From assembly GCA_025361705.1 (NCBI GenBank), contig JANYJW010000039.1, forward strand, positions 16,231-80,230: a stretch of DNA of 64,000 nt. The letters are read 5' to 3'. Shown one piece after another: positions 25,027-49,486 of this stretch. How positions within the stretch are numbered: the first letter of the stretch is position 1; the number at the start of each line of letters is the position of its first letter. Position numbers and translations under genes: made by a program. A model generated the notes under the pieces. It saw only the letters and a list, made by a program, of their open reading frames with translations, had not been told where the DNA came from and searched no databases. The DNA is from Gemmatimonas sp. Its GTDB lineage: Bacteria > Gemmatimonadota > Gemmatimonadetes > Gemmatimonadales > Gemmatimonadaceae.

Positions 25027-25491
25027 ATGGCAGATATCACCGAACTGTTGAAGGGCGTCGCCATCTTCCAGGATCTCGAGGACGGCGAGCTGGCGCGCGT
25101 CTCCGAAGTCTGCCGGATGCAGGAGTTGGTGTCGGGCGAATACGTGTTCAAGGAGGGCGAGCCGGGCAACCGGCTGTACCTGGTGGTCGAAGGGGAGGTG
25201 CGCATCAGCCGGATGATCCCAGGGAGTGGCGAGGAAGCGCTTGCCATCCTCAAGAAGGGATCGCTGTTCGGCGAGATGGCCGTGTTCGACCGCAGCGAGC
25301 GCTCCACCGACGCCATCTCGAACGGCGGCTGCAAGCTGCTCACCATTTCGCGCAGCGACTTCGAACTGCTGCTCGACTTCAACCGCGAGCTCGCGTACAA
25401 GGTGCTCTGGTCGTGCACCCGGCTGCTCTCGGCGCGTCTGCGCTCGACCAACGACAGCCTGCGCAGCTTCCTCGCCATGTCGATGTTCTAG
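25027..25491 (+). CDS. Stand-alone cyclic-nucleotide-binding domain protein
   Basis: cNMP-binding beta-barrel: GEYVFKEGEPGNRLYLVVEGEVRI...LFGEMAVFD...RSTDA. Confidence 0.85.
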   Translation: MADITELLKGVAIFQDLEDGELARVSEVCRMQELVSGEYVFKEGEPGNRLYLVVEGEVRISRMIPGSGEEALAILKKGSLFGEMAVFDRSERSTDAISNGGCKLLTISRSDFELLLDFNRELAYKVLWSCTRLLSARLRSTNDSLRSFLAMSMF

Positions 25492-44798: not shown

Positions 44799-46748
<1,950 letters not shown>

Positions 46749-46797
46749 CGGGGATGCAAGAGGTTCTGTCTGTTCGACGCCGGCCGAAGCGTTGTCG

Positions 46798-47220
46798 TTA
46801 GGCCGAGGTCAATTTGCGCAGGGCGGCGCGCGCCGTCTCGCGCTGTCCCCACGTCGGCGTCATTTCGCGGCCTGCAGCAATGCACTTGGACTCCGGCATG
46901 GCGGTGGACGGGGCACCCATTGGCAGCCATGCCGTGACGCATCGCATGACGGCCTCTCCCTCGTCGCGCGTCCAGCCGACCGTGGCCCCCGGGGCCAATG
47001 GGGCGGCCGACGACGTCCGTGGCGCACTGGCCGGCGGCGGCGATGCCGCGCCGCCGCCGGCCACCACCTGCGCGCGAATCAGCTCGGCGGCTTCCCGCAC
47101 GAAGATGCCAGAGCGCGATTTCGCCGTCTCCGACCGCACCTCGCCGCGATACAACGCGTGCACCGACGCCTCAACCTGCGTGGCCAGTCTGCCCAGTACG
47201 TCGATGATCTCGTCCGCCAT
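46798..47220 (-). CDS. Hypothetical protein
   Basis: ATG with a plausible helical N-terminal half, lying upstream of the kinase on the same strand. No domain recognised. Confidence 0.45.
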   Translation of the reverse strand: MADEIIDVLGRLATQVEASVHALYRGEVRSETAKSRSGIFVREAAELIRAQVVAGGGAASPPPASAPRTSSAAPLAPGATVGWTRDEGEAVMRCVTAWLPMGAPSTAMPESKCIAAGREMTPTWGQRETARAALRKLTSA

Positions 47221-47329
47221 GCGTCCTCCAGCCGACCGGTCGCCGGCAACCTTATTGCCATGCGGGGTGTTTACCCCTTACATAGGAACTTCGTCACACG
47301 CAGCGTCCTTTACCAGAGGAGCAGCATTG

Positions 47330-47914
47330 ATGCCACTTCGCGCCGTTTCGCTTGCCGTGCTCGTCGTCGCCCTCACCGGGCTGGCGGCATCGCACGCGTG
47401 GGCCCAGAGCGGCGACGGTCCCCAGGTGGGTGACATGGCCCCGGACTTCTCCCTCCCCGGCGCATCCAAGGCCGGCGTGCGCGAGAAAGCCCTGCGCCTG
47501 TCCGATTTCCGCGGGCAAGTCGTCGTCATCTCGTTCTTCCCCAAGGCACGGACCAAGGGCTGAACAGTCCAACATGAGGCGTACCGGGATCAGTACGCCA
47601 CGATCTTCAACGGCGGCAACGGCGTAGTCGCCATTTCCATCAGTTCCGATGGCGTGGACGAACTCGCGTCGTGGGCCAAGGACGCCAACTTCCCTGTCCT
47701 CTTCGCCAGCGACACATCCGGCGAGGTGGCGGCAAAGTACGCCACCACGGGCATGGGCATCGGGCCGATGAAGAAGTTCTACAAGCGGGTGGTCTTCGTG
47801 GTGGGACCCGATGGGCGGGTGGCGCACGTCATGCGCCCGTTCTCGGCCCTTTCACAGGAAGCGTACGTGCAGCTCGACTCGGTTGTCGACCGGGTGGCGC
47901 GCACGGGCCGGTAG
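47330..47914 (+). CDS. Secreted BCP/PrxQ-type peroxiredoxin with in-frame TGA (47561-47563) at the peroxidatic position; candidate selenoprotein (alternative: nonsense pseudogene)
   Basis: ORFs 46814-47563 and 47654-47914 share one frame with only this single stop between them. GAGGAG lies 8 nt before ATG 47330, and the signal peptide is MPLRAVSLAVLVVALTGLAASHAWA. FFPKARTKG-TGA-TVQHEAYRD fits the PxxxTxxC motif and E. coli Bcp YFYPKAMTPGCTVQACGLRD. Confidence 0.6.
47578..47599 (+). promoter_or_regulatory. SECIS-like hairpin downstream of the in-frame TGA
   Basis: 7-bp stem ggcgtac / gtacgcc with an 8-nt loop cgggatca. The stem starts 14 nt and the loop 21 nt after the TGA. Confidence 0.45.
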
Positions 47915-47967
47915 GCGGCAACCCAGGGGCCCGCAGGGCCGGGGGAAGCGTCAATTCAGCGTCATAG

Positions 47968-48007
47968 GAGGGGGGCGGCGGGCGCGCGAGCGCCGACCGC
48001 CCCCCTC
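47968..48007 (+). terminator. GC-rich hairpin downstream of the peroxiredoxin
   Basis: 11-bp stem gaggggggcgg / ccgcccccctc with an inner ggcgc/gcgcc stem. No T tract. Confidence 0.45.
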
Positions 48008-48142
48008 GTCTCGCCAAGTGACAGCCTTCTGACGGTGCCCTTCCATCCTCCATCCGTCGAATTGCCCCCGCCGACGAAGGTGCGGGCACGCCGGTGCGGG
48101 CGGAGCTCCTGCCGGACCGGCATGCACTCTTCGGGACCCGTC

Positions 48143-49486
48143 ATGTACCCTGTGTCAACCGTTCGTTCGTCGATTCCGTCCATTCGCACGGGTGCGGTGA
48201 CGGTGCGCGACCTCTTCGCCGCATCGCTCATCGCCGCCGACCCAACGGCCTTCACGGCGCGCGCGGTGCGCCTGCGCATCCCGGCTGACCGCAGCGCGGC
48301 TCGGCCCACGTGGATCGTGGCCCTGGGCAATGCGGCGATGACGATGGCGCGGGCGGCTGTGCACGAACTGGGGGAGCGCAACACTCCCATCGCCGGCGGC
48401 ATCATCGTGACACCGACGGTGAGCGATGTGCCGCATAAGGCGTTGGTGTCGGTGGCGGGCGACCATCCGCTGCCCGGGCTGCAGTCGTTTGCCGCAGCCG
48501 ACGCGCTGTCCGATTTGTGCGGGCGGGTGACCGGCGACGACCGCGTGTTCGTGCTGCTTTCGGGTGGCGCGTCGAGCCTTGTGGGCGCCCCGGTGGATGG
48601 TGTGGCTGAGGGCGACCTCGTCGCGCTGTGCAACACCCTCATGCGGTCGGGCCTCGACATCGGCCGGGTCAATGCGATTCGCAAGCGCTTCCTGCGCTGG
48701 GGGGCGGGACGCCTCGCCACGCAGCTTGCGCCGGCGCGTCTTGAGCTCATCGTGCTGTCGGACGTCATCGGCGACAACCTGGCGAACATCGCATCGGGGC
48801 CGTGCGTTCCCGACTCGTCCACGGCGGTCGACGTCCGCCGCCTGCTGGACGAAACCTCGCTTGTGGAGCAGGTGCCTCCGCGCATGATGCGCTACCTCGA
48901 CGAGGTGATGCACGGCGCACGTCCGGAGACTCCCAAGTTCGACGCACCCGCCTTCCTGTTCGCCGGCGTCCCGGCCGTGCAGGGCAACAGCGGGGTGCTC
49001 GATGCCGGTGCGCTCCGCGCGCGCGTGCTCGGCTTCGACCCGGTGGTGATCGTCAACGAACCGCTGCACGGCGAGGCCGCGCAGACGGGCGGACGCATCG
49101 CCGCCGCCGCGATGGCACTTCCCCGCGGCAGCGTCGCCTTCTGGGGCGGCGAGACCACGGTGACCATGGGCACGGTCGCCTCGCTCGGCGGCCGGTGCCA
49201 GGAGATGATGCTCGCCGCGGCCATTGCCCTCAATGACGCGGGTTCCGACGCCAGCGGCGTCACCATCCTCGCGGCCGGCACCGACGGCCGCGACGGCCCC
49301 ACCGATGCGGCGGGTGCGATCATCGATGCCGGCACCGCCGCACGCATGATGGAAGCAGGCATGGATCCGAGGAGCGCCCTGCATCGGCACGATAGCTACG
49401 AGGCGCTGCACCTCGCGGGCGGGCTGCTCAAGACGGGTCTCACGGGGACCAACGTGGGTGATGTGGTGATTGCGGTGAGGCACTGA
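48143..49486 (+). CDS. Glycerate 2-kinase / hydroxypyruvate-reductase-like (DUF4147 + MOFRL)
   Basis: VFVLLSGGASSL, NAIRKRFLRWGAGRL, GGETTVT and AAGTDGRDGPTDAAGA segments. Alternative ATG start at 48122. Confidence 0.85.
   Translation: MYPVSTVRSSIPSIRTGAVTVRDLFAASLIAADPTAFTARAVRLRIPADRSAARPTWIVALGNAAMTMARAAVHELGERNTPIAGGIIVTPTVSDVPHKALVSVAGDHPLPGLQSFAAADALSDLCGRVTGDDRVFVLLSGGASSLVGAPVDGVAEGDLVALCNTLMRSGLDIGRVNAIRKRFLRWGAGRLATQLAPARLELIVLSDVIGDNLANIASGPCVPDSSTAVDVRRLLDETSLVEQVPPRMMRYLDEVMHGARPETPKFDAPAFLFAGVPAVQGNSGVLDAGALRARVLGFDPVVIVNEPLHGEAAQTGGRIAAAAMALPRGSVAFWGGETTVTMGTVASLGGRCQEMMLAAAIALNDAGSDASGVTILAAGTDGRDGPTDAAGAIIDAGTAARMMEAGMDPRSALHRHDSYEALHLAGGLLKTGLTGTNVGDVVIAVRH

Follow-up and report, generated by a model that had tools for sequence, protein, structure and literature searches.

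Selenocysteine (Sec) insertion sequence (SECIS) elements of bacteria have been summarised in a consensus model (bSECISearch, Zhang & Gladyshev 2005, as given in PMC13188914, Fig. 2A), in which a stem of 4-16 bp carries a loop of 3-9 nt, a G stands in the first two loop positions and is usually followed by G or U, the loop lies 16-37 nt from the UGA, and the minimum free energy (MFE) is at most -7.5 kcal/mol. The commonest loop sub-pattern, N1(0-1)-G-[G/U]-N-N2(0-1)-N(0-2), in which N1 is paired with N2, applies 'mostly' and is not obligatory (PMC13188914). Peroxiredoxin (PF00578, motif TxxU) is listed as an experimentally known selenoprotein family in the same 2026 review (PMC13188914), and five conversions from cysteine to Sec, with no reversals, have been inferred within this family (PMC1794560). 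Here we analysed a 64,000-nt stretch of DNA from Gemmatimonas sp. (GenBank assembly GCA_025361705.1, contig JANYJW010000039.1, positions 16,231 to 80,230 of the forward strand; hereafter the window), in which an earlier note had pointed to a bacterial-SECIS-like hairpin at 47578-47599, lying inside a coding sequence just downstream of an in-frame TGA. Our analysis of this and related sequences indicates that the hairpin is very probably a functional bacterial SECIS element (bSECIS) of a secreted, BCP/PrxQ-like Sec peroxiredoxin that is widespread in Gemmatimonadota.

The gene in question (47330-47914, + strand) runs from an ATG at 47330 to a TAG stop at 47912-47914, spanning 194 codons with an in-frame UGA at codon 78 (47561-47563). 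Its product begins with a probable signal peptide of the Sec secretion type (MPLRAVSLAVLVVALTGLAASHAWA, followed by Q; 47330-47404), recognised in the translation by a hydrophobic core and an A-x-A motif, and matches the Pfam families AhpC-TSA (PF00578; E = 2.3e-24, 86.2 bits against a cut-off of 26) and Redoxin (E = 2.5e-17). The UGA, presumably read as Sec, stands in the motif P-K-A-R-T-K-G-U and is aligned with TGC or TGT in dozens of homologues. When the protein is aligned with PDB 2ywn, F-F-P-K-A-R-T-K-G-U-T lies over F-Y-P-A-A-F-T-Q-V-C-T and the UGA falls on the peroxidatic cysteine; an AhpC/TSA domain is therefore combined with a PxxxTxxU motif whose U occupies the peroxidatic position, as is characteristic of the peroxiredoxin selenoprotein family. 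Like PrxU of Eubacterium acidaminophilum (Sohling et al. 2001; NF040737), the window protein is an AhpC/TSA-fold peroxidase with Sec in T-x-x-U, but the two are not orthologous, the window protein being closer to BCP/PrxQ thiol peroxidases, carrying a signal peptide and coming from a high-GC Gemmatimonadota genome. It reaches only 39.7 bits with the PrxU model (cut-off 270), and its subfamily thus differs from the experimentally studied PrxU; the top NCBIfam match was the BCP-type thiol peroxidase NF006960, at 72.6 bits and below its cut-off of 140. TGA terminates 10 of the 23 long coding-like open reading frames (ORFs) of the window and is therefore a normal stop in this DNA, so that read-through would have to be site-specific.

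The hairpin is a perfect 7-bp inverted repeat, its 5' arm GGCGUAC (47578-47584) pairing with the 3' arm GUACGCC (47593-47599) around the 8-nt apical loop CGGGAUCA (47585-47592), in agreement with the pairing claimed in the earlier note; folding, pair counts and RNAalifold all support the two arms. The stem is separated from the UGA by a partly constrained 14-nt spacer (47564-47577), and the UGA-to-loop distance is 21 nt (47564-47584). The loop, which reads CGUGAUCA in most relatives, covers the codons Arg +8, Asp +9 and part of Gln +10, counted from the UGA; it has G at position 2 followed by G or U, the window itself having GGG at positions 2-4. These distances, the loop Gs and the peptide E-A-Y-R-D-Q-Y-A encoded across the hairpin had also been given correctly. 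In an RNAfold run on 47561-47620, the centroid structure was this hairpin (-11.8 kcal/mol; MFE of the segment -12.1 kcal/mol). With its 8-nt loop, 7-bp stem, C-G-G loop opening, 21-nt distance and energy of -11.8 kcal/mol, the hairpin conforms to the four bSECIS criteria, which the earlier note had stated in accordance with the published model.

As in the bSECIS model, the stem-loop of the window lies within the coding sequence, immediately 3' of the UGA; it differs in its longer loop, CGKGAUCA (K being G or U), and in having no conserved lower stem. With one base too many and C...A ends that cannot pair, the loop falls outside the commonest sub-pattern. The SECIS elements of E. coli fdhF and fdnG likewise lie just downstream of the UGA, with a short upper stem and a loop G-U at a fixed distance from it, whereas the window hairpin has no sequence similarity to that of fdhF, lacks its bulged U and has a loop of 8 nt versus about 4-6 nt. 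SelB contacts fdhF at G23 and U24; the equivalent G and K of the window are nt 26 and 27 from the U of the UGA, one codon further downstream. Manual pairing of the flanks CAAAUGGAG and ACGCUCUUC yielded no consistent helix, and a search of 47000-48200 with Rfam covariance models gave chance-level matches only (E >= 0.9). A terminator or attenuator is improbable, as no U-tract occurs 3' of the hairpin and no terminator-like site was found in 46700-48300. A repeat search of the gene returned two short inverted repeats, of which this hairpin is one; the other, at 47722-47749, consists of CGAGGTGGCG and CGCCACCACG (10 nt, 90% complementary, 8-nt loop), and its synonymous sites are not unusually conserved among Sec orthologues.

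Relatives of the gene were collected in several ways. A protein-based scan with one genome per species returned both TGA- and TGC-containing homologues and placed the window in Gemmatimonadota, the closest relatives being 82-86% identical. A DNA pattern encoding U/C-T-x-Q-x-E-A-Y-R-D-Q-Y-A, degenerate at all synonymous positions, retrieved at least 120 distinct sequences with TGA. A second pattern was anchored upstream only (F-F-P-x-x-R-T-x-G-U-T) and left the hairpin region unconstrained; among the Gemmatimonadota-type TGA genes that it retrieved, 51 have the common core and 3 have altered but compensated stems, and in none is the stem disrupted. The alignment used below comprises 143 distinct Gemmatimonadota sequences, in all of which TGA is kept at the active-site codon, the frame is open downstream and the loop begins 21 nt past the UGA. 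Two copies of the UGA-peroxiredoxin segment with the same hairpin core were seen on contig CBDBJW010000006.1 (L083 and L120) and in one metagenome-assembled genome (JBPCPS01; L104 and L129).

The inner six pairs of the stem are formed in 143/143 of these sequences, and the seven pairs together are 97.7% paired. The outer pair, which involves the first G of the 5' arm and is the least conserved, is G-C in 115 sequences, C-G in 4, A-U in 1 and unpaired in 23; most of the unpaired cases are A.A and belong to a GAA/GCA clade. What is conserved is thus a stem of 6 bp, to which a seventh pair may be added, as it is in the window. Where the inner stem does change, it changes on both sides: L255 has GGCAUAC/GUAUGCC, in which G-C has become A-U through two synonymous changes, L209 has GACGUAC/GUACGUC (Ala>Thr with Ala>Val), and L210 has GGAGUAC/GUACUCC (Ala>Glu with Ala>Ser). 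In two further sequences the third base of Tyr +11 is U and the pair is kept as a G-U wobble. Both-sided changes thus occur at four pairs, and the observed covariation was reached in 0/500 shuffles, while sliding the 3' partner by 1-3 columns as a control reduced pairing to only 12-43%. RNAalifold, run independently on the 143 sequences, returned exactly the 6-bp hairpin and nothing else, with no lower stem or extended structure. The check for conservation and compensation in TGA orthologues that the earlier note had proposed thus came out in its favour, with the inner 6 bp in 143/143 and three compensatory doubles.

The hairpin leaves a clear footprint in the coding sequence, where synonymous change is suppressed at codons +3 to +15 (47570-47608). 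Among residue-identical pairs of Sec orthologues, codon identity is 0.958 at these codons versus 0.625 elsewhere, and fully identical codons make up 12/13 inside versus 13/125 outside. None of 100,000 permutations reached the observed value, and the top sliding window begins at codon +3. In the first 11 TGA sequences, GAG-GCG-TAC-CGK-GAT-CAG-TAC-GCC-ACG is identical at every synonymous site, whereas the Cys homologues vary; in a protein-level subset of 11, pairwise identity is only 47-61%, so that synonymous sites elsewhere had time to diverge. Among the 120 Sec genes listed, Ala +6 is GCG and Tyr +7 is UAC without exception (120/120 each), Arg +8 is CGU in 110, CGG in 10 and never CGC, Asp +9 is GAU in 117, Gln +10 ends in G in all 120, and Tyr +11 ends in C in 118 and in U in the remaining 2; for Gln +3, CAA is used in 107/120. 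The flank at 47600-47608 is also constrained in the Sec genes (Leu/Ile +14 as CUC/AUC; Phe +15 as UUC in 103 of the 120 listed), and no mutual pairing between 47570-47577 and 47600-47608 was found that would account for the constraint on these flanks.

A similar arrangement recurs outside the phylum. Sec-peroxiredoxins of Marinimicrobia, Acidobacteriota, Gammaproteobacteria and one deltaproteobacterium have other peptides and other stems (GGGAUUC/GAAUUCC, GGGGUUC/GAACUCC, GGCGCUG/CAGCGCC and UGCGGGCUC/GAGCCCGUG), and in 50/63 of the sequences analysed from these phyla a loop opening with CGKGA begins exactly 21 nt past the UGA, on Arg-Asp/Glu codons. They thus share with the window a CGKGA(U) loop on Arg-Asp/Glu at the same distance, borne on a stem of 5-9 bp, but differ from it in the encoded peptide (G-F-R-D-E-[FL] versus A-Y-R-D-Q-Y), in loop length (5-7 nt versus 8) and in the protein as a whole, which is only about 28-40% identical to that of the window. 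Within a Marinimicrobia-type set of 38 sequences (A2), the 7-bp stem is 93% paired and alternates between G-C and A-U (22/14) and between U-A and C-G (36/2). A covariance model built from A2 only and run on both strands of the window ranked 47561-47607 first (13.6 bits, a rough E of ~0.07), the UGA and the stem being aligned in register and the loop's two additional bases being treated as an insertion. Its second match, at 25041-25068 (+; 9.7 bits, E 0.77), covers only the 5' single-stranded part (GAAC-UGUUGAAGG) and no stem, and is likely a chance match.

Two further groups were noted among the peroxiredoxins. In the C-x-x-E-C-K-S-L-A-E subfamily, the Cys members L042, L054, L055, L061, L066, L071, L073 and L076 read K-S-L-A-E at codons +5 to +9, and the Sec members L043, L056 and L072 read K-A-L-R-E/D; in the latter, the Arg codon CGU, which replaces an Ala of the Cys members, creates a CGUGA loop, and part of the stem comes from the Ala codon GCG. 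These replacements of amino acids seem to have been imposed by the RNA signal. Two Sec-peroxiredoxins of Bryobacterales (L045:3180-3245 and L047:3180-3245), which read U-T-R-E-M-K-A-Y-Q-A-G-I-A, have no Arg-Asp loop and carry the hairpin AUACCA-GGC-UGGUAU with its loop 23 nt past the UGA, apparently a second way of building a SECIS element within the peroxiredoxin family.

Several points weigh against taking the window hairpin as a functional bSECIS. In one sequence alone it is weak evidence, barely beyond chance: the folding energy of 47561-47620 is no better than that of dinucleotide shuffles (z = -0.03), that of a 121-nt context gives z = -0.75, the + strand of the window holds 112 perfect 7-bp hairpins with loops of 3-9 nt, and a hairpin of such geometry with an early loop G follows 1.8% of window positions, as it does 1.9% of window TGA triplets. 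The shuffle scores are uninformative because the DNA is 69% GC (68.6% across the window), and since neither fold nor frequency is exceptional, the significance of the hairpin has to come from the comparative data. There, compensatory changes are few, as the stem hardly varies, and the three pairs that show one do so in a single sequence each; the 143 sequences are related, so that their counts are not independent events; and the match of the A2 model is marginal and partly reflects shared homologous coding sequence. At least five contiguous pairs also occur in 12 of 27 Cys homologues from Gemmatimonadota, and all seven in one of them (L016). Finally, no tRNA gene and no selA, selB, selC or selD were found in the 64-kb window, and the literature searched shows no report of Sec use in Gemmatimonadota, Gemmatimonadetes or Gemmatimonas.

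These last two points bear on the alternative that survives best, which we nevertheless consider unlikely: that recoding is independent of SelB, the hairpin slowing the ribosome or hindering release factor 2 while a near-cognate tRNA (Cys or Trp) reads the UGA. Conservation data alone cannot name the factor that reads a hairpin, and the missing machinery extends beyond the window, as tblastn with approximate E. coli SelA, SelB and SelD queries against the window and 292 loci gave one unrelated GTPase match only, and Aragorn found no tRNA(Sec) on the related loci (~2 Mb). Absence from the window and about 2 Mb of loci says nothing, however, about the remaining genome. What selection maintains is not stem stability alone but also the loop sequence (G and then G/U, with U at position 6), and this points to sequence-specific recognition of the SelB kind. 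Moreover, the UGA stands at the redox-active Cys position of a family known to use Sec, the loop and spacing are common to the Sec-peroxiredoxins of other phyla, and the geometry matches that of bSECIS elements, all of which argues against a generic obstacle to the ribosome.

The partial stems of the Cys homologues raise a different alternative, according to which the palindrome has no RNA function and is a by-product of encoding A-Y-R-D-Q-Y-A with GC-rich codons, the UGA being read or tolerated in some other way. The codons GCG-UAC ... G-UAC-GC are indeed self-complementary, and the unexceptional fold of the single sequence also speaks for this explanation. Counted outwards from the loop, one of the 27 Gemmatimonadota Cys homologues has 7 contiguous pairs, three have 6, eight have 5 and the other 15 have at most 4; the peptide x-Y-R-D-x-Y-A thus accounts in itself for some of the pairing. 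The loop in 26/27 of them is CGC-GAY, and their codons +3 to +15 score 0.66 versus 0.55 elsewhere, with no freezing effect. A closer control was provided by a full scan of a collection of 185,579 species for Cys genes with T-x-Q-x-E-A-Y-R-D-Q-Y-A, the motif of the Sec genes, of which only 14 were found. In these matched genes, the third base of Ala +6 is G in 8, C in 4, A in 1 and T in 1, that of Tyr +7 is C in 7 and T in 7, Arg +8 is CGC in 13 and CGA in 1, so that loop position 3 is never G or U, Asp +9 is divided equally between GAU and GAC (7 each), and Gln +3 is CAG in 12. Six pairs are kept in 8/14 with G-U counted, 6/14 retain only three contiguous pairs, and none (0/14) reaches seven.

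Since the matched Cys genes vary freely, the perfect stem and loop belong to the UGA genes and not to the protein: for the same peptide, Sec genes fix synonymous sites at which the 14 Cys genes vary, which largely refutes the by-product explanation. In addition, CGU and GAU run counter to the codon choice of Cys homologues from the same phylum, in which Arg +8 is nearly always CGC; the non-synonymous compensatory pairs of L209 and L210 keep the stem while altering the protein; and other phyla retain the structure with different peptides. We therefore regard a purely protein-driven palindrome as very improbable. An equally stable hairpin in Cys-containing orthologues, which the earlier note had named as the sign of such an origin, is not general, given that the 14 matched genes vary and six of them keep only three pairs. 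The note's statement that the protein does not require the palindrome stands only in part, as the motif x-Y-R-D-x-Y-A with GC-rich codons gives at least five contiguous pairs in 12/27 Cys homologues. As a side observation, three Gemmatimonadaceae genomes carry tandem Cys/Sec pairs (L010:2073-2690, L012:2656-3273 and L013:1995-2612), in which the Sec gene is preceded on the same strand, at a distance of about 560 nt, by a Cys paralogue (C-T-A-Q-M-T-x-Y-R-D-[QK]-W-A) that has no hairpin, the Trp codon UGG disrupting the 3' arm.

A pseudogene or an assembly error at the TGA, with an irrelevant hairpin, was suggested by automatic callers, which give two short ORFs, but is refuted for practical purposes by three observations: the TGA recurs in 143 distinct sequences, which come from independent assemblies; the downstream frame is intact, with conservation at the protein level; and an identical N-terminal ORF occurs in three independent sequencing runs. 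In the public gene calls the gene is split into a 77-aa N-terminal ORF with a weak AhpC-TSA match and an unannotated 86-aa C-terminal ORF, corresponding to 47330-47563 and 47654-47914 of the window (also L293-L295); the runs with the identical N-terminal ORF, on short Logan contigs, are SRR23617163, SRR22198308 and SRR23617162, among the matches listed.

Conservation in TGA orthologues, the Cys controls and agreement with the four bSECIS criteria together support the description of the hairpin as bacterial-SECIS-like. As expected of a functional SECIS element, it directly follows an in-frame UGA at which homologues have Cys, and its structure is under selection in the UGA genes and not in the Cys genes. 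By analogy with E. coli, on whose system the proposed mechanism is modelled, we infer that the hairpin binds SelB, that Sec is inserted at the UGA and that the organism possesses the Sec machinery. The spacing of 21 nt would put the decoding complex at the A site as the UGA arrives, loop positions 2-3 (G, then G or U) would be the likely SelB contact, and Sec would be inserted in place of termination by release factor 2, so that the peroxidatic cysteine of a secreted peroxiredoxin would be replaced by selenocysteine. The window element would follow the known bacterial SECIS mechanism and adds nothing new on how selenocysteine is inserted.

The genes on either side are not obviously tied to selenium metabolism. 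The divergent upstream neighbour (44799-46748, - strand) encodes a 649-aa protein that has the motifs of a Hanks-type Ser/Thr kinase (HRDIKPANILL) and a Cys-rich segment at its N-terminus. For the downstream neighbour (48035-49486, + strand), the equivalent in L293 (447 aa as called) has DUF4147 and MOFRL domains and is glycerate-kinase-like. A scan of the window for other in-frame TGA candidates, based on GC content at third codon positions on both sides of the TGA, gave off-frame-looking translations only, and it missed the peroxiredoxin itself.

What automatic annotation splits into two meaningless fragments would thus be one intact secreted selenoenzyme. The gene and its signal are present in well over 100 species-level genomes of Gemmatimonadota, a phylum that the literature searched does not discuss as a selenocysteine user, and the invariant GCGUACCGKGAUCAGUACGC after UGAAC offers an annotation marker for such genes. 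The family also provides a natural experiment on an RNA signal within a coding sequence, in which the Sec genes freeze 12/13 codons and couple their replacements while the Cys genes drift. On a wider scale, peroxiredoxins may share a family-specific bSECIS across phyla, placed on CGK-GAN codons 21 nt past the active site, with Cys-type ancestors already holding a 5-bp proto-stem because of the peptide x-Y-R-D-x-Y-A; this proposal is a tentative one, which we think somewhat more doubtful than probable. If it is true, a switch from Cys to Sec would need few synonymous changes (CGC>CGU, GAC>GAU, GCN>GCG), and subfamilies without the Arg would need Ala>Arg, as in the C-K-S-L-A-E/U-K-A-L-R-E pair. 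Such pre-adaptation would explain the repeated Cys-to-Sec switches in peroxiredoxins (five events with no reversals, PMC1794560). The tandem Cys/Sec paralogues of L010, L012 and L013 are natural before-and-after pairs, and peroxiredoxins would then lend themselves well to the study of how SECIS elements originate inside a coding sequence.

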